Below, in pieces: positions 3,901 through 39,990 of a stretch of DNA of 64,000 bases. This DNA comes from Bolinopsis microptera (lineage: Eukaryota). The DNA lies in contig NC_087076.1 of the NCBI RefSeq assembly GCF_026151205.1, positions 16,453,142 to 16,517,141 on the forward strand, written 5' to 3'. The notes beneath the pieces are model-generated. The model was not told where the DNA came from. It made no database searches and saw nothing but the letters and a program-made list of their open reading frames with translations. Within the stretch, counting starts at the first letter, position 1, and each line of letters opens with the position of its first letter. The translations under genes were made by a program, and so were the position numbers.

Positions 3901-4096
3901 GACACCACACTCATCTCACAATTTCGCATATAAAGGGGCAAATTTATGGAATAGGTTTCTTGAGCAGTCAAATGCACGTGGTAAAATAGGTTCACTAGGT
4001 TCAATTAAATCCCGATTGAAGCTTTCTATCATGAAGGCTCAACACCAACCTGACAATATTAACTGGCAGGACTTAAACTTCAACACTTTCCTATGA
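953..4096 (+). CDS. LINE ORF2: apurinic-like endonuclease plus reverse transcriptase (CR1/L2-type). The frame opens at 953; the 1002-aa ORF is listed from 1088
   Basis: N-terminal EEP-endonuclease motifs (GLSETNIGPDE…, GDFNVNLH). RT motifs (FGFRKNHSTSHAL, DLSKAFDTLP, VPQGSVLGPLLFLIYIND, FADDTNIF). No ORF1 upstream, so the copy is 5'-truncated. The 3'UTR (about 4097-4265) contains the hairpin GTTACACGCGGGTGTAAC. Confidence 0.85.
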   Translation, partial: GSSYFLNIDGNKSNFDSLLTELHRINQNFTVIGLSETNIGPDESTVYSIPNYNSFYQNTVGNKSKGTGVALYVQDRLSSIVNELASDVTENLESLFVTSRKNSEEVTFGVIYRPPSGNFASFLTELSRILQILPKKSAYIMGDFNVNLHVNSKEVSNLEEIMFSAGFSPLISTHTHEKPGCNQTCIDNIYTNDINKVVASGTVSDRISHHLPVFHIFEDLAVTNSEPQVKHTQYYDYSESNVRVLVSSLNQHFSEHPPKNFIEFHDTFKTNLDKSCKLSKPKVSKRTPMTNPWITGGLIASINKKHELHDHWHKAKREKCLHNPGKLCREIKKACHCNPCNDAREKHANFTDKRRRVKHVIRLAQRLYTCNKIEECQGDSKKTWQLINKVRGKQNKQMKPSFMINNERVICRRVIAHEFNKYFVSIASNLNEVYERRIDEDPIIAKSFTDYLPQSCPSSIYLAECTSSEIIQIISEFNNGKASDIPAHVMKQCSQTISEHLARIYNNCMNEGVFPDQLKTGKITPIYKKEDEELLENYRPVSTLPVFGKIFEKIIYSRLYNFFLSRGIIFENQFGFRKNHSTSHALNYSVNHVEEKRNNKNHVLGIFIDLSKAFDTLPFDMLLKKLSNYGVRGNALKLLSSYLNNRYQYVSVLGEESEPLPVKLGVPQGSVLGPLLFLIYINDIYRCSTLGKFVLFADDTNIFVAAETKEQAYKIANEILDSVCQYMRHNLLHINVKKSCYMYFSPTKRKTIDNTENDLNLEIDGIPIKQVTETKFLGVIIDDKLSWTPHFEKLTKKLNSICGRIYRIKNSLPSQLYKQIYHTLFESHLGYGITVWGGVSINKLSPLFLAQKKCVRILFGDSEAFSDKFKTCSRSRPIQCSINKKGQISNESTIPHIKPCSICISLRKTGDKQARPHRCQILGAEFHSRESTKPIFQSKELMTVHNIYRYRCITETMKIVKSHQPISMYSLFKKSELRDDRFVTPHSSHNFAYKGANLWNRFLEQSNARGKIGSLGSIKSRLKLSIMKAQHQPDNINWQDLNFNTFL

Positions 4097-6604: not shown

Positions 6605-8025
6605 CAGTTTTTTTGGGTGTAATATGAGATTGAATGCTTAAGCTTGTGCTGTTCAGAGATATAGGCTGGGCATGATCTGTCTGTGGCTGAGTGTGTGTAC
6701 TGTTCATCAGTTCTCTTAGAATTTTTACAGTTAGCACAAGAGGGTTGAAAGGAATGTGTGTCTTTATTTGTACATGAGTTAGTTTCATGATCTTCAGTGC
6801 AATGAGCACAGACATGGTTAGATGCTTGGCACTGGGCTGAGTAATGACCAAACTTTTGGCATTTATTACATCGTTTGATGTAAAAGTGATCATACACCTT
6901 GCAGCGGTACAAACCTATGGATAGGAAATTGTCACGATTTTCTATCAGCTTCCGTATGGCATTGCTCACTCTAACAGAAGCTTGAAACAGTGGTTTTTCT
7001 GTTTGATAATTTCTTTGTTTGCGCACTGAGAGTACAGAAAATGTCTCACCAGAATCAATGAGGGATTTGATGTCAGGGTAAAGTTTCATAATGGTTTCGA
7101 AGAGATCATCGGGTGTGATTTCATCTCTAATCCCGGAAATGGATATCGTAGGCAATTTGGTTATAGGTTGCTTGAGAGCAGATTTGGGAAATTTTCTGGA
7201 GAAGGATTGAACTAACTTTGCTCGATCAGCTTGACTAGATGTAGTGATAACTGTCTCACCTTTCTTGTTTTCAAAGGTATTATCTACAAAAATATTATTT
7301 TCTGTGATAATAGTTTTAAGGTCAGATAATGGAACTTTTTCTCCCCCTTCAGAGACTATTACTGAAGCTGGGTGCCTCAGTTTTTCTACTCTGTTGCTGT
7401 CACACCAGGGATTTCCGACAACACCAGTAGAGACGGCAGTTGCATGGTTGCTATTAACTGGTGAAAGGGTTGGTGATATGGAACCGTTTCCTGTGGTCAA
7501 ACTTAACCCATGAAGAGTGGCAGGATTTAACAAGAGATTTTTAATGATGTCTATGTCAGCATCTAGTTTTGACATTTTTGTTTCAAGGGTGTGCACATGG
7601 GTTTTTAAATCAGCAGCGTTTCTCAGGTTTGATAATGTAACACAAGAGTCACAATGGAAGAGGAAATTTCCAAAACGTTTACCTTTCTGTTTTGATTCAG
7701 TGTTAGCATTGAAAGATTTCAGTAAGGACGGAGAGCATACATTATCAGTAAAGTTAATACGTCTATTGTCCTTCATTTCATAACAAGTAGCGTGAAAATT
7801 GCTCTTACATTCATAACAACATACCACTTCTCCTTTAGTATCGGACGAGCAGTTTCTGCAAATTCCATCAGCAGCTAACATACGTAGATCGTTCACAACA
7901 ATACAAGGGGGCTGGGGGCTGGCATTATCATCATTGTCATTATCATTACCATTGTTATCATGTTGCCCCTGTAAGACATGATTTGAGGAGCCCAGCCCCT
8001 CTGAGTTTTGATCGGGATCTACCAT
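6601..8025 (-). CDS. LINE ORF1 protein with a PHD-like Cys cluster and a CCHC zinc knuckle (474 aa); overlaps the downstream ORF2 start by 4 nt
   Basis: Cys-rich blocks (CRNCSSDTKGEVVCCYECKSNFHATC; CNKCQKFGHYSAQCQ…CAHCTEDHETNSC). Sits immediately upstream of, and 4 nt overlapping, an endonuclease ORF on the same strand, which is the typical CR1/L2 ORF1-ORF2 arrangement. Confidence 0.6.
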   Translation of the reverse strand: MVDPDQNSEGLGSSNHVLQGQHDNNGNDNDNDDNASPQPPCIVVNDLRMLAADGICRNCSSDTKGEVVCCYECKSNFHATCYEMKDNRRINFTDNVCSPSLLKSFNANTESKQKGKRFGNFLFHCDSCVTLSNLRNAADLKTHVHTLETKMSKLDADIDIIKNLLLNPATLHGLSLTTGNGSISPTLSPVNSNHATAVSTGVVGNPWCDSNRVEKLRHPASVIVSEGGEKVPLSDLKTIITENNIFVDNTFENKKGETVITTSSQADRAKLVQSFSRKFPKSALKQPITKLPTISISGIRDEITPDDLFETIMKLYPDIKSLIDSGETFSVLSVRKQRNYQTEKPLFQASVRVSNAIRKLIENRDNFLSIGLYRCKVYDHFYIKRCNKCQKFGHYSAQCQASNHVCAHCTEDHETNSCTNKDTHSFQPSCANCKNSKRTDEQYTHSATDRSCPAYISEQHKLKHSISYYTQKNW

Positions 8026-8700: not shown

Positions 8701-9618
8701 ATAATTTTACTTAAAAACTTTTTGACAATTTCTTTACTTTTAGCAAACTTTATTTTAGTTGCCTGGTACACACCTTGTTCATCAAACATACCTGTTACAA
8801 ACCTTATGAGTAACTTTTCTATTCTTTTTGAACTATCTATCAAATGATATTTTTTCTGTGAAATTGCAATCAATGATCGATTAAAAACTGGATTTCTCAT
8901 AATATTGTAGGAAAACAAGTTTTAAACTGTAAAACCCGATTTACCACAGAGTTTGGTGGAAGGATGTTTCCCTTCCACTGGAAGGGAAACATCTGCGGTT
9001 AATGTTATTCGTTTTAAGCCCTATTTAGGCAGGGGAATGGAGATTGCAGCGGTAAATCAGGGTTTATGGTAAATCAGGGCGTGGTAAATCGAGGTTCTGC
9101 AGTAATCAGTATATCTGTTGTATATCAATTTAGCTATAGCGGTCAAAAATACGCCTATTTAGATGGGCTTTATAATTCTAATGTAAGATCGAATGATGGC
9201 CTTAAATTTTCTCCCATGTTTCGAGATTGAATTTCTAGTAACGTGGACTATATTTTGTTTAAAAATATCGTTACTAATTTAAATGTTAAAGCATCATTTA
9301 ACTCCACGAGACCATGAAATGACTACCAAATTACCAATCACAAATTTTCCTACCATTGCTGAAGGCTAAAGTATCATAGGGAATAAGTAATTGGGTTTGG
9401 ATATATGAGGTGGCCCAACAGGGCAATGTTGAGGACAGAAGTTTGTTCCTTCGAAGTATAGACCACTCCCCTTTAATTTTGTGGATAGGAGATGTCTATT
9501 TTACTGCACGCAATGCAGGTCATAGTTAATTAATTACACACGAAGTTGTCACAAACGTATTTCTGATGCTTTTTTACCTCATCCAAAAAATTCCTCATTT
9601 TAATTACCATATCATCAT

Positions 9619-11132
9619 CACGTCCGTCTATGTCCGCTTGTCTCATAGAATCCAAAAAGGACAGGACATAGGCGGACATAGACGGACATATACGAACATT
9701 AGCTAAATAAAATTGCTAAATAAGATGTTCAATTTTTGCTGTTATATGGGGGATCATGTTTTTGTCCGGTACCCTATATTTTCAGTACCCTCAGTCATTT
9801 AGATGCTTCCTCCTCCTACTCTTCCTCCTTCCTCCTCCTCCTCCTGATCTTCCTCAGTCCTCTTCCTCCTCCCCTCCTCAGTCCTCCTCCTACTCCTCAG
9901 TCCTCCTCATCAGTCCTCAACAGTCCTCCTCCTCCCCAGTCCTCTCCTCCTCCTGAGTCCTCCTCCTGGGTCCTCCTCCTGGGTCCTCCTCCTGGGTCCT
10001 CCTCCTCCTCTTCATCCTCTTCATCCTCCTCTTCCTCCTCAGTCCTCAGTCTTCCTCAGTCCTCCTCCTCATCCTTCTCCTCAGTCTTCCATCCTCCTCA
10101 GTCCTCCCCCAGTCCTCCTCCTCAGTCCTCCTCCTCCTGGGTCCTCCTCCTCCTCTTCATCCTCCTCCTCTTCCTCCTCGGTCCTCAGTCCTCCGTCCTC
10201 AGTCCTCGGTCCTCATCCTTCTCATCAGTCCTCCTCCTCCTCGGTCCTCTCCCAGTCCCCCTCCTTCTCCTCCTCCTATTCAGTCCTCCTCCTCCTCCTC
10301 CTCCTCAGTTCTCCTCAGTCTTCCTTCTCAGTTCTCCTAAGACCTCCTCCTGAGTCCTCCTCTTCCTCTTCCTCCTGAGTCCTCCTCCTCCTCCCTCTCA
10401 GTCATCCTCCTCAGTCATCCTCCTCAGCCATCCTCCTCAGCCATCCTCCTCAGTACTCTTCAGTACTCTTCAGTCTTCCTCCTTCTCAGTCCTCCTGAGT
10501 CCTCCTCCTCCTGAGTCATCCTCCTCAGTCCTCCTCCTCCTCCTCCTGGGTCCTCCTCCTGGGTCTTCCTGATCCTCCCCAGTCCTCTTCCTTATCCCCT
10601 CCTCAGTCCTCCTCCTACTCCTCCTCCTCGTCCTCAGTCCTCCTCATCAGTCCTCAACAGTCCTCCTCCTCCCCAGTCCTCCTCCTCCTCCTCCTCCTCC
10701 TGGGGCCTTTTCCTGGGTCCCTATATAATTTGATATAATAAGTTAAAACTATTAATAGCTTTAGTGTGATTAATAAGTCGTTTGTTTTGTACAAAATTAT
10801 AATACATAGAAGTTGCAAAAAATTCTCAAAATGTTTGTCCGCTAATGTCCACCAATGTCCGCTAATGTCCACCAATGTCCGCTAATGTCCACCAATGTCC
10901 GTCCGAGTCCGCCAATATCCGTCCGGGTCCGCAAATGTCCGTCTGAGTCCGCCAATGTCCGTCCGAGTCCGCCAATGTCCGTCCGTGTCCGCCAATGTCC
11001 GTCCGAGTCCGCCAATGTCCGTCCGTGTCCGCCAATGTCCCAAAAAACACGTCCGTTGTCTCATAGAATCCAAAAAGGACAGGACATAGGCGGACATAGA
11101 CGGACGTGACATCCCCCCGCCCCCCCCCCCCT
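9619..11132 (+). repeat. Composite repeat, copy 1. Parts in order: a 65-bp hairpin module (CACGTCCGTCTATGTCCGC…GCGGACATAGACGGACGTG); a unique 100-bp segment; a 0.9-kb strand-pure pyrimidine minisatellite (TCC/TCA/GTC units); an AT-rich spacer; an inverted array of GTCCGCYAATGTCC repeats; a second hairpin module; a poly-C tail
   Basis: Seen directly. Module boundaries are shared with the copy at 21175-23166. The 'ORFs' at 9736-10353 and 10855-11112 are repeat translations. Confidence 0.7.
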
Positions 11133-11363
11133 CTATCTATAGTTTAGGCCATAAAAGGATTTCATGTTAGCAGAAACAAATTCTGGTTTATGAGTGGATC
11201 ATCAATTAATTATTTATTAGGTTTCAATTATTTATTGCTGTGTAAAATTGTATTATATTCTATTATATTATGTTATCTGGCTTTCAATTTTAAATGGAAG
11301 GAAAATCTTTTTATTTAAGTTAAAAAGTTAAAATTTCTAAATATCAAACAGTTCAGGGATGCA

Positions 11364-14300
11364 ATGAATGACATCAAGTTGCGTGACACTGAAGATAAAG
11401 CCACTGAATTGATTAATCAGCAACTGAAAAAGATAGTTGATACAAATGACACAGAATCCCTCAATTCTGGACTTGAAGATTTTGATATACCCGAAATCAC
11501 AGTCTTACCTTCTTTAGAAGAAATATTATCTCAAGATGATCCAATAACATTCCTAGACAGTGATTTGAGGGAAGATATTGACAATGTTCTCCTTGCTGAT
11601 GATGATATTATGTCAGTTATTTCAAGCAGTTCGTTTTCATCTTTAGGGAAGGGAGGTGATATGCCAAATGAAATAAAGACCAAGAAGAAGCTTTATGGCG
11701 AAGTTGTTAAATGTACTGGCTTATCACTTTTGGGTGGAATGTGCAATCGAGATGATAAAGCAACTGCAATCACGATCAAGAACAGATTGATTTGTGTCGG
11801 ATTTAGATCAGGCAAAGTGTCTTCAATGACCATTGATGGGGAAGTAAATGGAGAAATAACAAACAATAAAGTTTATGATTCAGGTGCAGTTACTTCACTT
11901 GACATAGAAGATGGGATCCTTGCTGCATCTCATTCCACAGGTGTCATACATGTGTGGAATTTGAAGAACAACTCTCATCTTCAGAAAATTGAAGTTAAAA
12001 TCACAGACAGCACAGTTATAAAAGTCGTTGTCATTGATCGAAATCATCTTCTCTATATGGTTTCCCAAGGGTCTGTCTTCGATGTTAAGCTTACAAAAAC
12101 TTTATCTATCAGAGGCTCTGAAAGTACATGCCTGTTTTCTGGATCACATGGGGAAGTTTTGGACATTCAAAGGCTCAAGGTTGCAAAAAATCACCCATTA
12201 TTCCCATACTGCATTATTGGTTTGTGCACCTTCAAACAAGTGATGCTTATTTCATTAAACCCTTACCCCAATATCAAGTACAGTGTGCGTCTTTGGGGGG
12301 ACACAACCACTCTTCCAGTAATAAACTGGTACTACCATGAAGTAGATTGTGAAAAGCCCAAACTTGTTATCGGCCGCAGCAAGAGGTTTGTCATGTATAG
12401 TCTAAACATCAATAACAGAAATCAAATATTCCTGAGAAAACTCAAATCATGCAGCCTTGAATTTCAGCTCATTTCGATTTTTTGGTTCAACACAAACACT
12501 GTTGCTGCTTTGGATTCCTCAGAAAAAGTTCACTTAATTGATGCCCATACTCTCTCTCGTTTGCAAACTGTGACACATGTGTCAGATATAGGTCTTTGTT
12601 ATAACACAGCGTTCTACCGATCTTTAGCCACTGGTGGTAATGTCAGTAAAGCTATGTTTGCTGCTTCTCAGTATGCATGTTATAATTCAGTTTGCTCATA
12701 CCCAGGAGGTACATGGTTCTTGGGGAGCAGAGATGTTATGAAAATTGCTTCAAATCCTTGGCGACAGAGGATAGTTGATCTTAAGAATGATTTGCACTTT
12801 GCTGATGCATTGGAATTAACTCTAGCCTTTTATTCTGGAAAAGGTAAAGGGGTTTCATCATTGGTGTTTCGTGACATGGACAAAGTTAAAGATTCATGTA
12901 TGGAATTGATAATAGAGATATTTTCACAATTCATAGAAGAAACACAGCAGGATTTGAATAGACTTGGAGTTGCTCTCAAGACATGCATCAATGCCTGCAT
13001 TTTTACCAAGAACACTTCTCTTGTTTATGATGAAATTTACACCAGATTGTCAAAGATAGGAGCTGTTCAACGAGTATTTTATGAGACATTGGAACCGTTC
13101 GTTTTTAATAACAAAATAAAATCTCTAAATCCAATTCTCATGAAGGATCTGCTAGAATACTTTAAAGAAAACGATAAGCTCCAAAGTTTTGAGAAATGCA
13201 TCCTCCACTTGGATCCAGTTAATCTCGACATCCACAACACTCTTATCCTTTGCAAAGAATATGACATGTATGAAGCTATCCTGTACATTTACAATGCCTG
13301 TCTCATGGATTACACCACACCTCTCACCAACCTCCTGGATGTACTACATGCTCAACTTATCGAAAATGACAAGACACACAAACAGGTTGGTTATGTCATT
13401 CTTATGTACATCAGTGATTGTCTGATTGGAAATATTCCCGATACCATGGGAGTGATTGATGCGGATGAGGAAGTGAGGATTCAAAATCTTGTTTTCAACA
13501 ATGTGTTTTGCAAGCACAGTGGTACTGAAAATCTCTTGTATCAGGAGCCGGACTATCCTTATGTGAAGTTAATTTTAAAGCTTGATACAAGAGAGTTTCT
13601 TAATGTTATGAGTGTCACTTTTGGACACCCTATGTGCTTACCAATCCATCAGATTGTAATTGACATTCTTCTGCATGTCATGATTGAGGAGGGACAAGAC
13701 TATACACCTCTACAGATTGGACATCTCTTTACATTTTTAGCCCGACAAAAAGTGGTAAACTCCTTCTATTTGGATAAAAAGTATCTCGACCAAGCTTTAG
13801 ATTGTCTAGCTACAAATGATGTGACTGGCCACGAAGAGAGGGAACAAGCACTCTTGGAACTAGTTCTTACAATCGGTATCACAGAATTTAACGAAGACAG
13901 GCTCCTTGCATTATCTGAGTCAGCAGGGTTTTACCAAGTGTGTGAAGTTATTTATGAGAAGAGAAACGAATACGAGAAAGTTCTGTTCTGCTACTGGTCG
14001 AACACCAGCAGAGTTGACAAAGTGTTTTCTTACATCTATCACATTATGGATGGGTCATATTCAGAGGAGGTGAAGACAAAGATAAGAGAGACCTGTGTTC
14101 AAAACATTGGAAAACTGATCGCTATAAACAATGAGGACACAGCTACTCTCATCCTAAAGGCATTCAGTGAGGATATTGAGAAGATAGTGTACATGTTGGA
14201 TGACCAGCCAAGGACATTGTACTCTCTACTACAATGTGTCTATGACATCAGTAAAGGATCTGAAGAGCCTGATATAAACAATGTCGAGATTCATCATATT

Positions 14301-15710
14301 TACATCAAGCTCATGTCACGCTATAATCCTGAATTTGTCTGTCCTTATCTTAAAGTGGCAACAGGATATAAGATCGATCCCATTCTGGAGCTTTGCTTAG
14401 TGGCCAATTTAAAAGATGCTGCAGCCTTTCTCTATGAGACAAAAGGTGATCTTGAGGATGCATTCAAATTGTACTATGACGTATTGAGGGATACTATCAG
14501 AGATAAACAGCTTGTATTTGTCGAAGAAACCCTTATTAAGATAATTAATTTTTGTCAAAGGAATTCAGACCAACTTTCACAAAATGACAAAGAATCTTAT
14601 TGGTTTTCTCTGATAGATTTGTTACTTGGATTGGGCGAAGCTCCTGATTGTATTGCATTACAAGAGATACTCATCGATAACATGCTTGGGTTTGTCTCTT
14701 CTTCGAAAGTGCTTGACAAACTAATCAAGAGCTCCTCCAACAAATCCTTCAAAACATATGGCGACATAAAGAAAGTGGTTGGTAACATGCTCGATACCTT
14801 GATGTATGAAGATGTGCTTCTCAAAAGTACCAGAAAAATCGTCCAGCACGACATCTTTACTGCCTTGAGAAGGGACAAGGTAGGTTTTGTGAAAGGAATA
14901 GACATCCACAAGAACGTTTGTGTAGTTTGCTGCCAGTACATAACTCCTGTTGACACAACGTTTTTCATCTTCCATTGTGCTCATCTCGCTCACACTGGCT
15001 GTGTTGAGCATATGAGGCAGAAGTACTGTGTGCTTTGTGAATCTGATCAGACTGTTAACAAGAAAACCCAGAAAATACTTAGCCGGGTAGTTTCTATTGA
15101 CGTTCCATACCATCAAACCCACTTTGAGTCTTGGAGAGCAAACTTTAATGAGCTAAGAAAGACATTAAACGGGGAGGACAGGATGGCTCTTATACATGAA
15201 CTATGTGATGATATTGGTAGCAATGCCTCCAATGATGATGAATATGATGTTGACCTAACGGCTGACTTCAAAGATTATTGCAAAGACCTCAATCTTGACA
15301 TGGATTCATTCATGACGAGTTCTAAAGAACCATCTGGAATGTCGTCTTCACGTGGGTCCAGAACTCAGGGGAACTTCGGCACCTCAAACATTACAGACTC
15401 AACTAGATCCTTCCAAAATTCACAGTTAATACACAGATCTTCAGCACCCTCCCCAACTCCAGCACGTCATTCTCCTCAAGGTGCTTCCAGAAACACTCGA
15501 AGAAGTCCTGTAAACAATCGTAACAGTCCAGTCACTAATCGCTATGAGCAATCAAAGAATCCGTTTGGAGATGAAGACTCTAATCCTTCCACTGCAGATG
15601 ATGTTAACCCATTTGGTGCTGGAACTCCCTCGCCTACTAATAATCCATTTGATGACGAGGACACTAATCCTTTTGCTGATGATTACAATCCTTTTGCCGA
15701 AGATATATGA
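11364..15710 (+). CDS. VPS8: Single-exon 1448-aa ORF with VPS8-like architecture (CORVET subunit): N-terminal WD40-like region, long alpha-solenoid, C-terminal RING-H2, then an acidic tail with five NPF motifs
   Basis: Uninterrupted 4.3-kb ORF starting at a true ATG, with an in-frame stop 45 nt upstream. RING-H2 spacing CVVCCQYI…FHCAHLAHTGC…CVLCE. The length and domain order match Vps8 better than Vps11, 18, 39 or 41. Identity is inferred from architecture only. Confidence 0.5.
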   Translation: MNDIKLRDTEDKATELINQQLKKIVDTNDTESLNSGLEDFDIPEITVLPSLEEILSQDDPITFLDSDLREDIDNVLLADDDIMSVISSSSFSSLGKGGDMPNEIKTKKKLYGEVVKCTGLSLLGGMCNRDDKATAITIKNRLICVGFRSGKVSSMTIDGEVNGEITNNKVYDSGAVTSLDIEDGILAASHSTGVIHVWNLKNNSHLQKIEVKITDSTVIKVVVIDRNHLLYMVSQGSVFDVKLTKTLSIRGSESTCLFSGSHGEVLDIQRLKVAKNHPLFPYCIIGLCTFKQVMLISLNPYPNIKYSVRLWGDTTTLPVINWYYHEVDCEKPKLVIGRSKRFVMYSLNINNRNQIFLRKLKSCSLEFQLISIFWFNTNTVAALDSSEKVHLIDAHTLSRLQTVTHVSDIGLCYNTAFYRSLATGGNVSKAMFAASQYACYNSVCSYPGGTWFLGSRDVMKIASNPWRQRIVDLKNDLHFADALELTLAFYSGKGKGVSSLVFRDMDKVKDSCMELIIEIFSQFIEETQQDLNRLGVALKTCINACIFTKNTSLVYDEIYTRLSKIGAVQRVFYETLEPFVFNNKIKSLNPILMKDLLEYFKENDKLQSFEKCILHLDPVNLDIHNTLILCKEYDMYEAILYIYNACLMDYTTPLTNLLDVLHAQLIENDKTHKQVGYVILMYISDCLIGNIPDTMGVIDADEEVRIQNLVFNNVFCKHSGTENLLYQEPDYPYVKLILKLDTREFLNVMSVTFGHPMCLPIHQIVIDILLHVMIEEGQDYTPLQIGHLFTFLARQKVVNSFYLDKKYLDQALDCLATNDVTGHEEREQALLELVLTIGITEFNEDRLLALSESAGFYQVCEVIYEKRNEYEKVLFCYWSNTSRVDKVFSYIYHIMDGSYSEEVKTKIRETCVQNIGKLIAINNEDTATLILKAFSEDIEKIVYMLDDQPRTLYSLLQCVYDISKGSEEPDINNVEIHHIYIKLMSRYNPEFVCPYLKVATGYKIDPILELCLVANLKDAAAFLYETKGDLEDAFKLYYDVLRDTIRDKQLVFVEETLIKIINFCQRNSDQLSQNDKESYWFSLIDLLLGLGEAPDCIALQEILIDNMLGFVSSSKVLDKLIKSSSNKSFKTYGDIKKVVGNMLDTLMYEDVLLKSTRKIVQHDIFTALRRDKVGFVKGIDIHKNVCVVCCQYITPVDTTFFIFHCAHLAHTGCVEHMRQKYCVLCESDQTVNKKTQKILSRVVSIDVPYHQTHFESWRANFNELRKTLNGEDRMALIHELCDDIGSNASNDDEYDVDLTADFKDYCKDLNLDMDSFMTSSKEPSGMSSSRGSRTQGNFGTSNITDSTRSFQNSQLIHRSSAPSPTPARHSPQGASRNTRRSPVNNRNSPVTNRYEQSKNPFGDEDSNPSTADDVNPFGAGTPSPTNNPFDDEDTNPFADDYNPFAEDI

Positions 15711-16423
15711 TTCTGATAATTTCATCATTGACAATAGATTATGCTTTGTATAATACGACGTATACTTTAGTTCTGTATTATGTTAGTGTAGGGTTTAAAT
15801 AGGCGAACCTGTTTGAGAACTGAATTCTGTCAGGTTTAATTTTTAGTTCTCAAGTACGAAAATATAGCCATGTAAAGATAATCACCATACTTACGACCGG
15901 TTTTCTCGTTGATGTATGGCTTGCTGTAATATGTTGACTGCAAACAGATCAGTAATTAAATATAATATGTATATTTAAACCAGTATTCTACGAGCAGTAT
16001 CTTTAATGATGTCTTTTCTTTGATAATTTTTCAGGTTTGTGTGAAAGATGATTTGTGTTATATTGACCTCGTCGATTTGACTTTCCCGATTTACTTGTTA
16101 GGCATCGTAATTTTATTGGTGAATGAAATTCATGTGTAAAATCATATTTTGTTAAATGTTTAATGTTTATTGTAAATGGTTTTGAATATCGATTTCTGTC
16201 TAATATCCCTTTGATAAATATCATACGAGTATAATTGCTTGAGCCGTTTTTCACTTCAATCTGATTAAAGAATTTTTATTTAAATAGTTGAACTAGAAAA
16301 TGGAATCAAAGCCGATTGAATTTAATTGAATTGGTCTAATTTTGCTCTTATGTTTCTGGTGTGAAAATTCTTTAAATTTGTAACAATATGTTTGTCATGT
16401 TAACTTTGTTTTAAAATATTCAG

Positions 16424-19400
16424 GTATGTGCTGAAGGCATTAAAGTTCAACATAATGTGTGATTTGGACATCTACGATCCTCCTTGCCCAGCGAAGGACG
16501 CTCCGGTCAAATCTCGGGGACTGATAAGGTTCAATTTTGTCACGTGATTATTATATTTGTCATTAACGCATGTAAAATCAACAATTATTGGTCGAATTAA
16601 TAATTTTTATACAATTCTCAAAACTTATTTCATCATGAGACATATATTTTCCATTTTGTAATCGAAACCTAAATGCAATGAAATTGCAGGACTAAATTCA
16701 CAGAATACAGCAACACGATAACCTCAGGGATCAGTGAGCAGAGGGAAAGGGTTAACTATGTGGAGCAGAAGGTAATTGTTCAAGACGTGTTCACTGTTCA
16801 GTTTTTAAATACGTATTATACCCTATCATATTCTTATTGATATAACGATAACAATCTAAAAATAGATTCGTCTGGGATAGTGAGTGATAGTACCCGAGAG
16901 GAGCCTGGATAACTGATAGAGTGCTAAGACCTGTAGCTGTTGTCAATTTCGCGCAATTTAATAGATATTGGCATTCGTGTGTATTGAAACTAAGTTGAAA
17001 TTTGTACCAAGCCTGACGTCACTTCAAAACAAGTTGAATCACATTCCGTTGTCATGGAAAAATGGTTCACTGGTGTGTGCTAATTGATGAAGAATGGTCA
17101 AGTGACACATTTAGGTGATATTTAACTGTGGTCACGTGTCTCATGTCTGTGTGTATGTCACGTGTCTGTGTGTATGTCATGTGACTTACTGACTTAGGCT
17201 CATTATCATGGACTCATCTTTAATGGATATCTTCCACCTCTATTTAAGTGTAAAGCCCTCAACTGTGTTTCAGTGTTTCGGATTTACACAAAGATATACA
17301 CCTCTTGCACAGGAGGTGACCGGGACATGATTTTAGGCCTGACCGGGACCGGGACCGGGATACAAAATGTGACTTGACCGGGACCGGGACCGGGACTGAG
17401 ATTATCAATTTACCGTGACCGGGACCGGGACCGGGACCAATAATTTCTGGGATTTCTATCTTACCGGGACCGGGACCGGGACCGGGACCAACAATCCAAT
17501 TTTACCGGGATGACCGGGATTTGACCGGGATGACCGGGATGACCGGGATTTGACCGGGATGACCGGGACCAAAACTGGTATTCTCATATTGAAAGCTGCA
17601 ACTTTCATTTACATTATAATTAAACAATTTGAATAAGTAATAACTAGAATATTAAATTAGAAAAAACTAGAAAAAACCCGTCAATATGGGGCATGGGCCT
17701 AATGTACTACACCAATAATGTTCATGTACTGATTACTCAAGTTCACCATCATTCCTCATTCCTCAATCAATGATCCCTCAAATTATTCAACAGTTTCATT
17801 CTCCAATTCCAATTGACAATTGGGCGTAGCCCGAGTTGAAAACTTGATGTTAGTTTGCACTTATGAGTTATGTAACGATATTAGTTACCTAAACTTGTTT
17901 AGCAATTTTAAACATTGTTTTATTTGGCTCAGAGGTTGTTTAAAGATGAAATTCACAATGAATGAAAGTAAAAACTTAAAATCACAGTGAATGAAATTAT
18001 GTAAAAGATCCCGGTCAAAATCCCGGCAAATTTGAGTGATTGACCGGGACCAGGACCGGGACCGGGACCAAGAATCCTGAATTAACCGGGACCGGGACCG
18101 GGACCGGGATCATAAATCAGCATTTGACCGGGACCGGGACCGCGACCGGGATGAAAAATGTGACTTGACCCGGTTTACCGGGACCGGGACCGGGACCGGG
18201 ATAGCTCAAAATTGCCAATCCCGGTACCGGGATTCCCGGTACCGGGAATCCCGGTCACCTCCTGCTCTTGCATAATGCATTGCACTATACACACTCGTAG
18301 CTATCTCTTCGCAGGGTCTATCTACAGCGTGTATTTTGTATTTTTCAATTATAAAATCATAATTTTAAATTTAACGAATCATTAAAATTAAAATTCTAAC
18401 TCCATTATTTTTCCAGGTACTGTCTACAGTAAAGCCAGTAACGAGGTTTATCCCAATAACCTATGATACAGTTAAGAGAGTGTCTGTGATCAGTTTATGT
18501 ACTTTTTCTGGAGTTATACAGGGCAGAAAAGCTGGGGGCTTTTTCAGGAGGTTTGATTTAAACTGTTTCTTTCCACGACAAAGTTTATTAATTAAATGAT
18601 ACATATAACGATAAGATAAAATAATTTTTTGATTCTAGACAGAAATATACGCTTTAACCGATTTCGCTTGCAACTTATTTCCTTATTTCTGCCTTTCAGG
18701 ATTCTGTATCCAGTATTTGGATTTGTTGGAGGTAATGCTGCCTGTTACCCAAAACAAACCTACAGTCTAACTTCCAAAACTCTAACCACCACTTTACCTC
18801 TGGTCGCTACTGCTGGGAAGGCAACTGTTGATGGTAAGATCGGGGCAGTAGTTCAAGGAATTTAGTTGAATTAGGGAAATGTCTCCTGGTATTAATATTT
18901 ATGATGGTTTTCGCTGAAACGAACTTCTTGTCCACTCGATTGTCTTAATTGTTAATGCAATTCACTTAATGTACAACATCATATCATAATTCATTTGACA
19001 GTTATCAAATTATATATTCGCATTTATCCACACTATTTACATTACACGTACAACGTGATATTATTATCAGTGTACTGTGTTCAACACCAACTACACCGAT
19101 CAATTGCCAATCTGCGAAACATGTATTTATTATTATCACTTCGAGATGGCAGGGCCTACTCTCATGCTGTCTATATGTGATGATTAACTCTGAAAAACTA
19201 GAGGACAACTGGGGAATGATCCCAGAACCTCGACATATCGCGTGTCTTGCTCTACCTGGGATCATTCCCCAGTTGTCCCCTAGTTTTTCAGAGTTAATCA
19301 TCACATATAGACAGGATGAGAGTAGGCCCTGCCATCTCGAAGTGATAATTCATTTGACCTTGTCCTCTTGTCAGGAAGTAGATTTGTGTTCCATACGGGG

Positions 19401-19733
19401 AAGAAAGTGTCCTACTTCATATACGACAAAGTCAGTGAACAGTTCCCTGATAAATCTATCGTGGAGGAGCCCGTTTCAGATGAGCCAAACAACATAGAAA
19501 CTATTCAGGAAGCTGTTTTGATCGATGATTCATCAGAGGCTTCCGAGGACACTGTCTCTTCAGAAGAATTATCAGAAGACGTAGTTTTAGTTGAAGAACA
19601 AAGTTCTTCAGATACCGTAATTTCTCTTGAGAAGCTTCCTTTACCGACGGAGGTTCCGCCGATTGAAGAGAATCTTGGAATGGGCGACAAGGATCATGAT
19701 GATATGTACAGCACCCGATCATCACGATCATGA
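16424..19733 (+). CDS. Unidentified multi-exon gene (span includes introns). Candidate exons at about 16424-16540 (MCDLDIYDPPCPAKD…), 16690-16771 (TKFTEYSNTITSGISEQRERVNYVEQK), 18418-18550, 18699-18836 (ILYPVFGFVGGNAACYPKQ…) and 19359-19733 (…RFVFHTGKKVSYFIYDKV… with an acidic serine-rich tail)
   Basis: Stop-free segments bounded by AG/GT dinucleotides. No homolog recognised from memory. Several CAG|GTA sites are ambiguous between donor and acceptor. Confidence 0.3.
17302..18272. mobile_element. Non-autonomous hAT-like MITE, 955 bp. 16-bp TIR (CAGGAGGTGACCGGGA / TCCCGGTCACCTCCTG), flanked by an 8-bp target-site duplication CTCTTGCA. The interior is two clusters of (GACCGG)n hexamer repeats
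   Basis: TIRs at 17310-17325 and 18249-18264. Identical 8-mers at 17302-17309 and 18265-18272. An 8-bp TSD with a CAG… TIR start is characteristic of hAT elements. Confidence 0.6.
19132..19349. repeat. Near-perfect palindrome: 94-bp arms (2 mismatches) around a 29-bp loop. A hairpin-forming MITE or foldback unit, inside an intron of the 16.4-19.7 kb gene
   Basis: The left arm (19132-19225) is the reverse complement of the right arm (19255-19349). The mirrored ORFs 19005-19304(-) and 19177-19497(+) both read MMINSEKL…DNWGMIP and are artefacts of the palindrome. Confidence 0.6.
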
Positions 19734-21174
19734 TTAATTTATTAATAATACTAATTAAGTTGAATGATATGTCTCTTGGGCATTTTCTACCATGGCTATG
19801 TAAAGATCATATAGGCGTTTTGTTGTATGAAGATTTTATAAAAAATGTATTTGGTATTTATGATCGTTGAAGAACCTGTAATTTTCATTATTCAGCATTT
19901 TCTCTGTCTATCTTAACAAGCTCCTAATTTAATCTAGATTCAACTTTAGCCATCTTTCTATCTTTCTGGAATTATCATGACATTTCATGATTATTTTACA
20001 CTGCCATGATACTGTAACTGATATATCACTCTAAAGATAATGTATGGTTGATCTGTTAAAAGCTAACAGTGTATTGTAACTAATCACGTGACACTATTCT
20101 CAGTTAATGTATGGTTGATCTGTTAGATCAGTGTGCTCCACACTCATTCTACGACTCTATCACAAGTCCAACAACTTGCCCCTCCGACTATTGGGACAGG
20201 AAACCCTCCAAACTCTGGTTTTACTCTTTCTGGATTGTCGTATTCCTGTTTTATGCTATAAGGTAAGACAAAGCATCTGATGTGTGGGTATAGTTTATGC
20301 TACCAGGCAGACAATAATGAAACTGCAGATAGTGAAATGTAGTTTAAGTATAATTAAAAGACATTACGATATATATATGATCGATGAGGATTGGGACCCA
20401 TTTTTCCACTTATTAACCGTCGAAAGATCATCCGTTTCTTCAAAATCAGTCCTTCTTGTCAACATTAATTTCAATAATTTAAGATCTTTGATAGAATTTT
20501 CTGGAATTCAAACGGAAGTCAGGTTATCATTACAGGTTATGTATGGGTAACTCAGCAACTAACATTTACAAGAAAACATCTAATTATATCCGCGGATCTT
20601 CGACATCGCCAACCAAATCAGAAGAAAGCGAAATTGGTGTAGTTGTTGTCAGAGAGAGAAGGAGGTTGGTTGTTGACAATGTTTTTTAATATATATTACA
20701 TTATTTACAGTGTATTAATTAGGATGGACTGGTTTGATCCCGATCAAAAGCTTGACGGTCACACATTTGCGCAAATTAAAATCGTTTTACGTCGCGCGCT
20801 ATGAGTTTTGGTCTGGGTAGCACAGCAATGAAGCGGCGCGCGCACACACAATTACATGCATTTCGCGAAAATTCGTACGTACGTACGTTTGATCGATCAG
20901 CTAGATCTGTCTTAAATAGAATTTGCGCACTACTTCTATTTTAATTCTTGAACATGTTATTCAGTGTAATCAGCATTGCCAGACATTGACTAATTTTTAC
21001 CTCTGATTAAAAAAACTGATGCGATCTACAGTTTACAACCTGACAATGATTCTTCAGCTTCCTAGTGATTGTGTGGTCTTTTCTGTCTTTGGTTTTCACT
21101 GGAACCTTACTGTTGCTGGGATCTCTAAACCCTTTGCTTTTTTAGACTTGCACATATCAATAAAGGGGGGTGTC

Positions 21175-23136
21175 ACGTCCGTCTATGTCCGCTTGTCTCA
21201 TAGAATCCAAAAAGGACAGGACATAGGCGGACATAGGCGGACATAGACGGACATAGGCGGACATAGGCGGACATAGACGGACATAGGCGGACATAGGCGG
21301 ACATAGACGGACATAGACGGACATAGGCGGACATAGGCGGACATTAATGGACACCTAAATTGCTAAATAAAATGTTCAATTTTTGCTGTTAAAGGGGATC
21401 ATGTTTTTTGTCCGTTCGGTACCCTATATTTTCAAAACGGACAAAAAATAGAGCGGACAAAAATGGACAAAAACGGACAAAAATGGAAATAACATTTAGA
21501 TGCTTCCTCCTCCTACTCTTCCTCCTCCTCCCCCTGGGTCTTCCTGATCTTCCTCAGTCCTCTTCCTCCTCCCCTCCTCAGTCCTCCTCCTACTCCTCCT
21601 CCTCGTCCTCAGTCCTCCTCATCAGTCCTCAACAGTCCTCCTCCCCAGTCCTCCTCCTCCTCCTGAGTCCTCCTCCTGGGTCCTCCTCCTGGGTCCTCCT
21701 CCTCCTCTTCCTCCTCAGTCCTCCTCCTCATCCTTCTCCTCAGTCCTCCATCCTCCTCCTCAGTCCTCCCCCAGTCCCCCTCCTCCTCCTATTCAGTCCT
21801 CCTCCTCCTCCTCCTCCTTCTCAGTCCTCCTCAGTCCTCCTCCTCCTCCTCCTCCTCCTCTTCCCTCTCAGTCATCCTCCTCAGCCAATAGCCATCCTCC
21901 TCAGTCCTCCTCAGTCCTCCTCCTCAGTCCTCCTCCTCCTGGGTCCTCCTCCTCCTCTTCATCCTCCTCCTCTTCCTCCTCGGTCCTCAGTCCTCCTCCT
22001 CCTAGGTCCTCCTCCTCATCCTTCTCATCAGTCCTCCTCCTCCCCAGTCCTCTCCCAGTCCCCCTCCTTCTCCTCCTCCTATTCAGTCCTCCTCCTCCTC
22101 CTCCTCCTCAGTTCTCCTCAGTCCTCCTTCTCATTTCTCCTAAGTCCTCCTCCTGAGTCCTCCTCCTGGGTCCTCCTCCTCTTCCTTCTGAGTCCTCCTC
22201 CTCCTCCCTCTCAGTCATCCTCCTCAGTCATCCTCCCCAGCCATCCTCCCCAGCCATCCTCCTCAGCCATCCTTCTCAGTCATCGTCAGTCCTCCTCCTT
22301 CTCAGTCATCGTCAGTCCTCCTCCTCAGTCCTCCTCTTCCTCCTGGGTCCTCCTCCTCCTCCTCCTCCTGGGTCCTCCTGGGTCCTCCTGGGTCTTCCTG
22401 ATCCTCCTCAGTCCTCTTCCTCCTCCCCTCCTCAGTCCTCCTCCTACTCTTCCTCCTCGTCCTCAGTCCTCCTCATCAGTCCTCAACAGTTCTCCTCCTC
22501 CCCAGTCCTCCTCCTCCTCCTCCTCCTCAGTTCTCCCCAGTCCTCCTTCTCATTTCTCCTAAGTCCTCCTCCTGAGTCCTCCTCCTGAGTCCTCCTCCTC
22601 CTCCCTCTCAGTCATCCTCCTCAGTCATCCTCCTCAGCCATCCTCCCCAGCCATCCTCCTCAGTACTCCTCAGTCCTCCTCCTTCTCAGTCATCGTCAGT
22701 CCTCCTCCTCAGTCCTCCTCAGTCCTCCTCCTCCTCCTGGGTCCTCCTCCTCCTCCTCCTGGGTCCTCCTGGGTCTTCCTGATCCTCCCCAGTCCTCTTC
22801 CTCCTCCCCTCCTCAGTCCTCCTCCTACTCTTCCTCCTCGTCCTCAGTCCTCCTCATCAGTCCTCAACAGTCCTCCTCCTCCTCCTGGGGCCTTTTCCTG
22901 GGTCCTCCTCCTCCTCCTCCTGGGTCTTCCTGATCGTTCTCCTCCCTCTCAGTCATCCTCCTCAGTCATCCTCCTCAGTCATCCTCCTCAGCCATCCTCC
23001 TCAGCCATCCTTCTCAGCCATCCTCCTCAGTACACTTCAGTCCTCAAAATGTTTGTCCGCTAATGTCCACCAATGTCCGCTAATGTCCACCGACCACCAA
23101 TGTCCATCCAAGTCCGCCAATGTCCGTCCGGGTCCG

Positions 23137-23166
<30 letters not shown>
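21175..23166 (+). repeat. Composite repeat, copy 2, same orientation as copy 1. Parts in order: hairpin module plus (GGACATAGRCG)n; unique segment; a 1.55-kb pyrimidine minisatellite; GTCCGCTAATGTCC repeats; a 28-nt poly-C
   Basis: The first ~170 bp and the junction sequences (…ttgctaaataaaatgttcaatttttgctgtta…ggggatcatgttttt…taccctatattttca…; …ctcaaaatgtttgtccgctaatgtccacc…) are shared with 9619-11132. The 384-aa ORF at 21408-22562 is a repeat translation. Confidence 0.7.
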
Positions 23167-23167
<1 letters not shown>

Positions 23168-23219
23168 AAAGTAATAGCATACTTTCTAAACGAAGTAAGA
23201 CAAGTTTAATTTTAGCATA

Positions 23220-23595
23220 ATTTTCAGTTCATTGAGTAGAGATGACGATGACGATATCGCCCACGAGTTTTGGGAAGAAACGAAACATAGAGACGGAAAA
23301 ACTCGAATGAAACGTGTCCTCAAAACTTATCCACTGGTAACCAACAATTTAAAGATTTTGACATAACTTTATTTTTTACTTCCCGTGATTGAGGCATGAC
23401 AAAGGAACGTGTTCATTTCTGACTACAATCTAACCTATTAAATGACAACATCACTTTCAGGGATTTGTGAAATTGCCAGTTCCCTGTTTACATCCTGACT
23501 TCACGAGGGTGATGCTACCGAACTACGATATAATGGGCAAACTACAGTGCCGGAATGAACCTGAAGAGGAGGAGGACATAGCAAACGAAACATGA
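23220..23595 (+). CDS. Two terminal exons of an unidentified gene (…DDDDIAHEFWEETKHRDGKTRMKRVLKTYPL / GFVKLPVPCLHPDFTRVMLPNYDIMGKLQCRNEPEEEEDIANET*). Possibly the 3' end of the 16.4-19.7 kb gene
   Basis: Open segments with AG acceptors and a GT donor, ending at a stop at 23593-23595. Weak. Confidence 0.2.
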
Positions 23596-24007: not shown

Positions 24008-27000
24008 ATGGTAAATCTGTTCCAAGGCGATGTCATCTTTATCGATGGAACCAGCTACAATTTCAAAACAAAATCTCGGATTAAAAACACGGTCATCGAT
24101 GGCGGAGGACAAGTTTCATTTTCTTTGAACAAAAAGGTCAGAATTTCTAGTTTATTGAAATTTAAATAGCACCAGGATTCACATAAATCTATTTATTATG
24201 GCTTAGCTGTATTACAGCTGTGTAGTGTGTTAACTGGAGGTGGCCGGTGGTGAGCTAGTCGACAGCAAAACTAATGATAATAATAAAATATTGATATAAC
24301 AGGTCAGCTGTGTGCTAAGTTCGGACGTGCTAAAGTTTAAAGCCAGCTCTAGAGGGGGAACCTGCAAGAAGCTAGGTATTCCTGTCGTGTCGGAACGTTA
24401 TGTTGATGAGTCTTCTGCTTTAGGCATCAAACAGGTTTTAAAGTATATTTGAATCTTTCATGGGTTTTCCAATCGTCCTTAGGGGTCGTTCACATATTAC
24501 GTAATCAGCCGAGGGGGGGGGGGGGGGTTATATGCTTACGGTTGATTAGCTAATAGCTCACTCTTTAAAGGTTGCCTAGAAAGTCTGACGTTCTTACTAA
24601 TTTGCCTCTCCATGTTATGATCCTCTTAAATTTTAGAGTTACAGTCAATATGAGGAGTTTAGTGCACAAGAAAGGACGGATTCTGGAAAATTCCAGCTTG
24701 ATCTGGGCGAGGAACCGAGACAAGTCCTCAGTCAGGAGCGAAAGCAGGAACTCCTTTCATCCGGTGAGATCATCTCAATGAATTGGATTCGGACTGTTTC
24801 ACGTTGTCACTCAACCTTTATTTTCTTAACAATTGGTATTTTATGGAGACAATTCGCGGAAGTAGTATAATAGAACAATTCCATATTTTCAGTTACGAAA
24901 TGTGCTGTTGCTACCCTGGACACAACTGGGATGACTAGGCTAAAGCTATGTTATCTGAACAAAACTGAGCTCTGGCTCCGCAATCCGTCGTCTTATCGCG
25001 TCATTAAGCGAGGCGCTAAGACAAATTGTAAAGTTTGGGAGATGTCAGATAGGCTGGAGGCACTCTTTGTGTTCACAACCATCTCAAATAAACACTATCT
25101 GACCCAGCATCTACGCGAAAAATGGTTTGAAGAGAAACCATTTGAGGTAGAACGACTCAATCTGGAATTGAATGTTCTTCCCCATAAAATGAGAGTGTTT
25201 TCCTTGGTTAAATTCCTCTGGGATACCGCTGGGGATGCTTTACATTTACTTCGAGGTTGCCAATTTACCCTCCCGAAACTGGTTCGAATTGAAAGTATCA
25301 TATTGGATTTGATGGAAATCTTGAAAATCGAGCCACATGGTGGACAACTGATAGGAACTCTCGTTAAAGAACTTAGAGCTGCCGGTGTTCCAAATGCTTA
25401 CGCTAACGTTGTGAATTGTAGAGGGGTAAAAGATTTGGTGGTACTGTTGGACTGCATAAGGATTCTTAAGGACAGAATCCCTCTTTCTCAAGGTAAGAGT
25501 CATTCGATACTTCTAATTATAAATTGTAATCAGTCATAATACTTTTATGAATAAATTATTAAAGACGATTTGTGAATAAAGTAAGCAAAAAGTAATTTTT
25601 AAGTGAATGACTTTATGTTTATTTTTTCGCAATCTGGTAAAAGGTATTTCAGGTATCTCCACTGCTGAAGATATCTATCGAGCAGTCGGTTGCAAGATTG
25701 GACTTACTCAAATGGCAAGCAAGGAGGTTCAGTCGGCCATAGAAGCGATTAAGTAATTTAAACCTTCATTTTCCTTACTTTATCAAAAAATTTCCTGTTT
25801 TTTTGGGTTTCATCATCTTAACGAAATCACCTCACAGATCAGACAGTGGTTTCCCCGCAGTATGCTACTCACTAGAACACCCTTCCGCCGTGATGCAACA
25901 AGTCAAATACCCCTCTGCCCCCACTAAAGTTCTCTTCCACGCCACTGCTACCGCTAACGTCTGGGGCGTTTTGTCCAGGGGACTTGTTTTGCCTTGGCAG
26001 GTGGGTTGTGACAAAATGAATAATACTATTCAGCAAGTTGTGTCAGCAGCCACGTCATGTTTAAATATTGTTAGATAAGATAGTAAATCGTGCCTTTCGT
26101 TCTGATTTATTTAGCCGATAGAAAGTGAACTTTACGTTAATTTCCAATCCTGTATCATTAAATGTATGCTACATGTTTGGCAGGTTGAAAACGAACTTGG
26201 TATCATCAGAAGGGATCATGGTCGTCTGGGTCGAGGAATCTACTTATCAGAAAACCCAATGTAAGTACTCTCTACTCAATACTAGATCATACCTGGTAGA
26301 TCTTTTCGGAATTGTACTTTGATTTAAAATTATACCTAAAAGTATGATCATATCAGTCTTTAAGATTCCTCCCTATCTTACTATCTGAGATCTTTTTCAT
26401 TTGCAAAGCTACAACTTAGTAAACCCTCCTAAACTCAGCTCACTTTTCCAGGGACAGCATCAGATACTTGCACCCTACTGAACCTTCTCCCCGAGGAACG
26501 ATGTTTCTAGTGGTGTGTGAGGTGGTAACAGGACACCAGTACGCTACCTCCAAGGAACTGCTCGGTTCCGCTGCTCCTCCCTCTGGGTAGCTATTTTTCA
26601 GTGAGACTTTGCTGTGATTGAATAGAATAAATCAACGTTAGATTCAAGTTAAAAGCATGCTCGAAATTGCCGGGCGTTGTTCATCATCATTACCATCCTC
26701 ATTCCTCTGCCGAACTTACCTTCACTGATATTAAATTGTGTTTAACGCTGCAGATCATTTCAGATACGACAGCGTCGTCTCGACGACCCGTTCTGAGGAC
26801 GATTTGTCCTGTTTCGACTACAAGGAGTTCTGTATATTCGACACTACCCGTCTCAAGATAACCGGACTGATCGAGTTCGCGGTGGTGCCTGATCCGAACT
26901 TTCTGTATCCTCCCGTGCAATTACATCTTCCTTGGATTGATGAGGTGAGGGCATTTTTAAATAGACTGTTCAGTCATTCAGTGTTGGGATGTTTCGAGTT

Positions 27001-37290: not shown

Positions 37291-39990
<2,700 letters not shown>

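Follow-up and report, generated by a model that had tools for sequence, protein, structure and literature searches.

Two direct repeats on either side of a VPS8-like gene in Bolinopsis microptera as probable insertions of a foldback-like, non-autonomous DNA transposon

Long repeats that stand in the same orientation on either side of a gene raise the question of whether repeats and gene form one unit or have reached their positions separately. This question is posed by a 64-kb stretch of Bolinopsis microptera DNA (contig NC_087076.1, positions 16,453,142 to 16,517,141), which was analysed as a whole and is called the window here. It contains two copies of a composite repeat, referred to as copy 1 and copy 2, with a VPS8-like gene between them. 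An earlier note on this DNA had described the modular order of the copies and had seen them as brackets around a gene-containing segment. We consider it very probable that copies 1 and 2 inserted independently of each other and belong to one family of foldback-like DNA transposons that are non-autonomous and end in terminal inverted repeats (TIRs). The family has inverted repeats, 6-bp target-site duplications (TSDs), dispersed copies and no coding capacity, and both insertions appear to be absent from orthologous loci. The apparent bracket around the VPS8-like gene would then be coincidental, an abundant mobile element having inserted twice in this region.

Architecture and termini of the two copies

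The regions 9300-11700 and 20800-23500 were read and aligned to each other by BLASTN, and array coordinates and periods in both copies were obtained with Tandem Repeats Finder. Copy 1 spans 9619-11131 and copy 2 spans 21165-23164. They are collinear and directly oriented; homology opens at 9618 and 21173, respectively, and extends as far as the C-runs, with no alignment between the flanks. Both copies consist of a hairpin module, a GGACATAGRC array, a conserved segment, a minisatellite, a GTCCGCYAATGTCC array and a C-run, which bears out the common modular order proposed before. Within the window the 19-nt motif CACGTCCGTCTATGTCCGC (12 occurrences), the 27-nt loop TTGTCTCATAGAATCCAAAAAGGACAG (3) and GTCCGCYAATGTCC (37) are confined to the two copies, and these counts are far above the shuffled expectation of 0 to 0.27. 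The 19-nt arm and the 27-nt loop of the 5' hairpin module are identical between the copies, while the 10-bp array that follows has 3.5 units in copy 1 and 12.6 units in copy 2 (21219-21344). The conserved segment of about 80 bp (9710-9784 versus 21357-21434) shows 88.75% identity. The 3' arrays, built of GTCCGCYAATGTCC with a period of 10/20 bp (10836-11040 and 23054-23138), run inversely to the 5' 10-bp arrays and can be aligned with them in opposite orientation at a diverged 78-81% identity; the 3' array is, as described before, an inverse-orientation relative of the 5' repeats. The minisatellite has the size given before, 0.9-1.6 kb (925 bp in copy 1, 1550 bp in copy 2), however it is not pyrimidine-only: pyrimidines account for 82-83% and the longest pure runs measure 27-35 nt. 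It consists of degenerate arrays with periods of 3/10/13/16 (9808-10701 and 21505-23031), and a clear higher-order period was not found, only weak peaks at 370-480 bp. Neither copy contains an Rfam match at E <= 0.1.

The first module had been described as a 65-bp hairpin with perfect 19-nt arms. It indeed folds strongly as single-stranded DNA (-21.5 and -21.8 kcal/mol for the two 5' modules, z = -7.9 and -6.2 against shuffled controls), more so than the 3' module (-12.1 kcal/mol, z = -2.6), but its right arm carries two mismatches. A perfect reverse complement of 9619-9637 is found solely at 11090-11108, in the opposite end of copy 1. The perfect pair thus consists of the two ends of copy 1 and is a terminal inverted repeat rather than the arms of the 65-bp module. 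The second occurrence of the hairpin module at the 3' end of copy 1 (11048-11131) was found as claimed. The true 5' end of copy 2 lies at 21165, where GGGGGGTGT stands ahead of CACG. It matches the copy 1 3' end (...CGTGACATCCCCCC) as its reverse complement, with the G/C-run included, and 21165-21197 and 11083-11118 are reverse complements with 91.7% identity over 36 nt. The 19-nt core is identical at every 5' and 3' end examined. The 3' hairpin module of about 95 bp is present in every other complete copy and absent from copy 2. Of the C17-C28 homopolymer reported for both copies, copy 2 has C28 (23137-23164), whereas the run of copy 1 is interrupted (C6-G-C12). Across copies the homopolymer termini vary from G3 to G27 and from C5 to C28. 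The paralogous copies in one locus (L023, see below) have C22 and C26, thus slippage or sequencing error explains the variation in run length, though not the existence of homopolymer termini.

The earlier statement that no TSD is evident did not hold. Besides the window, six 20-kb loci (L020-L025) were taken from one long-read assembly, ERZ25073835. All five copies with both homopolymer ends, namely copy 2 and four further complete copies, are flanked by perfect 6-bp duplications, for which a chance 6-mer match amounts to about 2e-4 per copy. The duplication is AATAAA in copy 2 (21159-21164 and 23165-23170), ACTTGT in L022 and AATGTT in L025. In L021 it is AGTAGG, leaving G13 and C13 if two G's are counted in the duplication, and in L020 it is CCTTTT, CTTTTG or TTTTGG, the register against the runs being ambiguous. 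With inverted subrepeat arrays at defined ends, the resemblance to foldback-type transposons that had been suggested is apt. The parts of both copies are listed in Table 1.

Table 1. Parts of copies 1 and 2, and the gene between them (positions in the window)
Feature	Position	Strand	Remarks
Copy 1, 5' TIR core CACGTCCGTCTATGTCCGC	9619..9637	+	No preceding G-run/TGT; without target-site duplication
Copy 1, loop (9638-9664), then 3.5 units of the GGACATAGRC subterminal repeat	9638..9699	+	Forms the hairpin together with the TIR core
Copy 1, conserved non-repetitive segment	9700..9795	+	Also in copies from other assemblies
Copy 1, pyrimidine-rich degenerate minisatellite, periods 3/10/13/16	9796..10720	+	82.9% pyrimidine
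Copy 1, AT-rich internal segment	10721..10824	+	Not in copy 2; 87% identity to the L024 copy
Copy 1, 3' subterminal array (GTCCGCCAATGTCCGTCCGN, period 10/20)	10825..11040	+	Inverse to the 5' array
Copy 1, 3' hairpin module: core GCGGACATAGACGGACGTG (11090-11108), ACAT, C6-G-C12	11048..11131	+	Canonical 3' terminus of the family
VPS8-like open reading frame, intronless, 1448 aa	11364..15710	+	Between the two insertions, not part of the element
Copy 2, left target-site duplication AATAAA	21159..21164	.	Directly outside G6
Copy 2, full 5' terminus: G6, TGT, CACGTCCGTCTATGTCCGC	21165..21192	+	Reverse complement of 11090-11118
Copy 2, loop, then 12.6 units of the GGACATAGRC array	21193..21352	+	
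Copy 2, conserved segment (21357-21434) and GGACAAAAA-rich stretch (21435-21492)	21353..21492	+	GGACAAAAA-rich stretch private to copy 2
Copy 2, pyrimidine-rich minisatellite	21493..23042	+	82.4% pyrimidine; at most 84.6% identity to the copy 1 minisatellite
Copy 2, short 3' array fused directly to C28 (23137-23164)	23043..23164	+	Without the ~95-bp 3' hairpin module
Copy 2, right target-site duplication AATAAA	23165..23170	.	Directly outside C28

Dispersed copies and the locus of the VPS8-like gene

Copies of the family are found well beyond the window. Scanning JGI metagenome contigs for the 19-mer gave 11 matches, and four of these are real and marine (L010, L012, L013, L016), with the same loop, the same arrays, and a G-run and T(G/A)T before CACG. 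The remaining seven (L009, L011, L014, L015, L017-L019) were rejected as element copies; they are GC-rich and have nothing in common beyond 19-26 nt, thus they are chance matches. A search of a protein collection with the translated end modules yielded at least 45 distinct clusters of open reading frames (ORFs) from ENA assemblies. According to these translations, six of seven additional 5' ends carry a G-run, and one insertion lies within a retrotransposon pol gene. In P0153, an ORF translation from an ENA contig, a truncated 3' hairpin loop runs straight into a G-run and a TGTCACG 5' end, hence the hairpin loop of one element has been the insertion site of another. Across L020-L025 there are at least nine copies in which both ends are present. 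Their interiors are 2-3 kb long and non-coding and contain repeats of their own of about 150 bp; the L024 interior holds a minisatellite of about 110 bp and (GATAA)n, and has the AT-rich segment 10721-10824 in common with copy 1. Marine plankton metagenomes, among them some from the North Sea, contain the element as well. Since the end modules keep one order, with defined ends, at many unrelated loci in metagenomes, ENA assemblies and ERZ25073835, they do not behave as independent satellites.

No copy encodes a recognisable protein, and the interiors differ between copies. Thus, the family is non-autonomous. ORFs that extend across element ends comprise only translated repeats or read-through into neighbouring ORFs of retrotransposons, including long interspersed nuclear elements (LINEs). 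The host can be approached through a spermidine-synthase-like gene in L022, for which the closest named relative is that of Pleurobrachia bachei (55% identity, the next 38%); to judge from this similarity, the element family likely belongs to a ctenophore lineage. In the literature on ctenophore transposons and repeats we found no description of repeats of this kind. In locus L023 (1-20393) a region with a sugar-transporter gene is duplicated in tandem, the units being about 8.5 kb long and 97-98.6% identical. Each unit has two element copies, one unit is broken by a LINE, and the breakpoints lie beyond the fetched DNA.

The gene between the window copies encodes a protein with Vps8 beta-propeller and TPR domains. 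It shares about 30% identity with canonical animal VPS8, compared with 63-89% for the orthologues of four other assemblies, which are intronless as well; orthologues also occur in Tara metagenomes. The gene looks like an old, conserved retrogene-type VPS8 paralogue. The adjoining gene has ordinary short exons. In the orthologous loci of related species (L001-L008) we found no element modules near the VPS8-like gene. Downstream synteny with L001 is kept, and the conserved blocks around copy 2 are separated by 2601 bp in the window versus 360 bp in L001, which accounts for the 2.0-kb copy 2. In this comparison the orthologous loci are without either insertion, and the insertions appear lineage-specific and independent, so that a functional bracket around the VPS8-like gene is not to be expected. 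The view that the copies bracket a gene segment therefore had to be given up, given that copy 2 has a TSD of its own, unrelated flanks, and orthologous loci that have the gene but not the copies. Copy 2 lies between coding blocks of the + strand at 20534-20629 and 23223-23339 and is probably located in an intron of the next gene. A deletion from copy to copy would consequently remove the VPS8-like gene together with the first exons of its neighbour. Non-allelic recombination between same-orientation copies 10 kb apart is possible in principle, as a generic property of such repeats.

The interval between the two copies also holds a hAT-like non-autonomous element at 17310-18264 (17302-18272 with its TSD), with a perfect 16-nt TIR CAGGAGGTGACCGGGA, CAGGAGG ends, ACCGGGA subterminal repeats and the 8-bp TSD CTCTTGCA. 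L001 probably lacks this element, its interval being shorter by about 1.5 kb. A weak Rfam match to mir-789 at 18166-18257 (+; 30.7 bits versus a gathering score of 100) falls on palindromic CCCGGT repeats of the hAT-like element and must almost certainly be regarded as an artefact. Two LINE-type retrotransposon copies lie shortly before copy 1, at 1088-4096 (+) and 5012-8025 (-), one with a 1002-aa endonuclease and reverse-transcriptase ORF, the other with an endonuclease-like ORF of 530 aa and, on the opposite strand, an ORF of 474 aa. G/C homopolymer tracts seem to be common in repeats of this genome. A Harbinger-like miniature element fragment at 24478-24527 (GGGGTCGTTCACATAT...) is followed by G15; a complete relative in L001 (19441-20628) is flanked by TAA on both sides and has internal C-runs. 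An isolated C20 run at 36508-36527 has no recognisable element around it. The window further contains a perfect (CT)113 microsatellite (39018-39243), a 37-bp satellite of 30 units with 96% identity (59886-61005), and a 527-aa ORF (32268-33851, +) in which two actin N-terminal-like segments are followed by a long proline-rich low-complexity region that includes an 18-bp tandem repeat (32834-32948).

A model of transposition and its alternatives

A full element of the family would read G-run, T(G/A)(T/A), CACGTCCGTCTATGTCCGC, 27-nt loop, (GGACATAGRC)n and a variable non-coding interior prone to tandem-repeat expansion, followed by (GTCCGCCAATGTCCGTCCGN)n, the second hairpin module ending in GCGGACATAGACGGACGTG, ACA and the C-run, with the 6-bp TSD outside. 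We infer that the family moves by cut-and-paste chemistry and that its repeats act as binding sites. A transposase from an autonomous relative elsewhere would bind the phased 10-bp GGAC-core repeats, which are opposed at the two ends, pair the ends, excise the element and reinsert it where the target is cut with a 6-bp stagger. Candidate transposase-binding sites are the GGACATAGRC and GTCCGCCAAT repeats, by analogy with Tm1 (PMC3169594), Tetris (PMC4079207) and Galileo (PMC3688188). The window copies probably descend from a sub-lineage whose interior had already gained a minisatellite derived from (TCC)n. The pyrimidine-rich array was found in these two copies only and not in copies outside the window, thus it was already present in their common master copy. 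As regards the possible order of decay, copy 1 is without the 5' G-run and the duplication and copy 2 is without the 3' inverted repeat, thus both look immobile. Copy 2 probably lost its 3' hairpin and inverted-repeat module of about 95 bp by a deletion running into the C-run.

Could copy 1, copy 2 and the intervening 10 kb still be one unit, either a composite or 'macro' transposon with the VPS8-like gene as its cargo or low-copy repeats of a segmental duplication that are kept as recombination substrates? The copies do agree in orientation, modular order and minisatellite, and the tandem duplication in L023 has element copies in each of its units. However, copy 2 has a private 6-bp duplication at both of its ends, homology between the copies stops at the element ends with non-homologous flanks beyond, and the outer ends offer no matching pair of termini, as copy 1 lacks the G-run at its 5' end and TACCATATCATCAT mismatches AATAAA. 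In addition, four other assemblies have kept the VPS8-like gene and show no element modules in its vicinity, and between the copies another gene begins and an unrelated hAT-like element has inserted. We therefore regard a single unit as extremely improbable. Even less credence can be given to an ordinary dispersed satellite or minisatellite cluster that was spread by recombination or segmental copying instead of transposition. Tandem repeat does make up most of each window copy, and this genome is rich in homopolymer and simple-repeat tracts, but such a cluster is refuted by the defined termini and the 6-bp TSDs; the ends are sharp and identical and the flanks unrelated. Moreover, some copies are nested in other repeats (a retrotransposon pol ORF, the hairpin loop of another copy), and no copy outside the window has the minisatellite.

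A different mode of movement would be mobilisation of single-stranded DNA by a hairpin-recognising enzyme of the HUH/Rep type, as in Helitron- or IS200/IS605-like systems, with the hairpins and not the inverted repeats serving as signals. In line with this, the same hairpin module is found with the same loop orientation at both ends, the 3' end is always intact, and several copies show an alternative CACG 5' boundary without duplication. Still, we judge this very unlikely, since a fixed 6-bp TSD accompanies all five copies with both homopolymer ends while rolling-circle and peel-and-paste elements make none. The ends are true inverted repeats, homopolymers included, and neither 5'-TC / CTRR-3' termini nor an A^T or TT target is present.

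Several observations also weigh against the cut-and-paste model that we favour. An autonomous copy or a transposase domain was not found in the gene tables of L020-L025, and a scan of viral contigs for the 19-nt core of the terminal repeat gave no match. A base-exact empty site is missing: the flanks of copy 2 and the L001 interval are too diverged in their non-coding DNA, and the upstream flanks of copy 1 cannot be aligned upstream of the gene in L001-L004. A second copy of the LINE part of P0145, sought as an empty site, was not found among the sequences gathered. Three independent copies (copy 1 of the window, L024 and L023a) begin exactly at CACG, without G-run, TGT or duplication but with intact 3' ends, and two further copies have GGGT alone at the 5' end and no duplication. 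Thus, the TSD is absent from all five copies with an aberrant 5' end, and the flanks of the copies without G-run, examined for hidden duplications and for motifs in common, gave nothing convincing. Exact CACG starts are not predicted by simple cut-and-paste and random decay; three copies stop at the same base, so random damage is a poor explanation. Variable homopolymer termini are likewise unusual among transposase substrates. It could be that the homopolymers inside a 6-bp TSD, the hairpins with the same loop orientation and the CACG starts reflect two integration modes, or a gain or loss of the homopolymer during processing of the ends, and not decay after insertion. If homopolymer termini and CACG starts are indeed a matter of mechanism, the family would be of interest to transposon biochemists. 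That it stands for an undescribed superfamily or an unusual transposition chemistry is nevertheless unlikely in our view. Under the favoured reading of independent TIR transposon insertions, the interiors of the family repeatedly spawn different minisatellites and thus illustrate cleanly how a transposon can seed tandem repeats, and the family is worth an entry in repeat libraries.

Relation to known transposon groups

The closest parallels in design are the elements of the foldback and Mutator-like element (MULE) group, such as Drosophila FB, Meloidogyne Tm1 and Drosophila virilis Tetris. They are likewise non-coding, have composite TIRs in which a short terminal motif is followed by tandem units of 10-15 bp in variable number, possess a variable middle that expands into tandem repeats as in the window family, and their autonomous partners are rare or missing. 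TIRs built of short tandem subrepeats, as in foldback elements, are also what we find here (10-bp units at the 5' end, 10/20-bp units in inverse orientation at the 3' end). Tm1 (PMC3169594) and Tetris (PMC4079207) have short tandem repeats within their TIRs that serve as additional transposase-binding sites, and both have satellite-prone interiors. Elements of this group are known hotspots of ectopic recombination, and their TSDs measure 8-10 bp, mostly 9 bp (PMC3169594, PMC4079207), compared with 6 bp in the window family. Further differences are the minor share of the repeat arms, which take up 35-130 bp and 95-215 bp of 1.5-3.2 kb and whose end arrays have diverged, the G/C homopolymer termini, and a self-folding hairpin at each end.

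The same design of tandem repeats within TIRs is ascribed to Galileo, a member of the P superfamily in Drosophila (PMC3688188, as cited in PMC4079207). Its TIRs are long and internally repetitive, as here, the tandem repeats carry additional binding sites of the THAP transposase, which is the role proposed above for the GGAC-core repeats, and copies have caused rearrangements via ectopic recombination (PMC3688188, PMC4168063). Autonomous copies are known for Galileo and were not found for the window family, and the two have no sequence similarity. Its TSD is 7 bp long.

The length of the duplication points to other groups. Duplications of 6 bp have been reported for IS3EU/GingerRoot and for Polinton/Maverick elements, and the termini of IS3EU/GingerRoot are TA..TA, occasionally TG..CA (PMC10045372). 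The window family shares the TSD length with IS3EU/GingerRoot but not the termini, which are G-run..C-run; the TGT...ACA just inside its homopolymers recalls the TG..CA ends of integrase-type elements. In the literature on superfamilies with 6-bp duplications we found no match to the G/C-run termini. The Repbase rule for comparing elements asks for equal TSD length and for agreement at positions 1-11 of the termini with at most 1 mismatch (PMC4455052). Polinton/Maverick elements agree in the 6-bp TSD as well, however they are 15-20 kb long with genes for a protein-primed polymerase, an integrase and capsid proteins, none of which was seen in any copy, and a non-autonomous Polinton/Maverick derivative is conceivable. 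Typical hAT elements differ by an 8-bp TSD and a 5'-YAG end, compared with 6 bp and a G-run here; the hAT-like element at 17310-18264 shows the TSD length and the CAG terminus to be expected of that group. Duplications in the 6-bp range also occur in Dada (6-7 bp) and in some hAT subgroups. Helitrons and Helentrons make no duplication, have 5'-TC...CTRR-3' ends and insert at A^T or T^T, in contrast to the 6-bp TSDs, G..C ends and diverse targets of the window family. With miniature inverted-repeat transposable elements the family shares its non-autonomous nature, TIRs, a TSD of fixed length, a high copy number and a frequent position near or inside genes. Such miniature elements are smaller, while the copies of the window family reach 1.5-3.2 kb with long subterminal arrays and large variable interiors.

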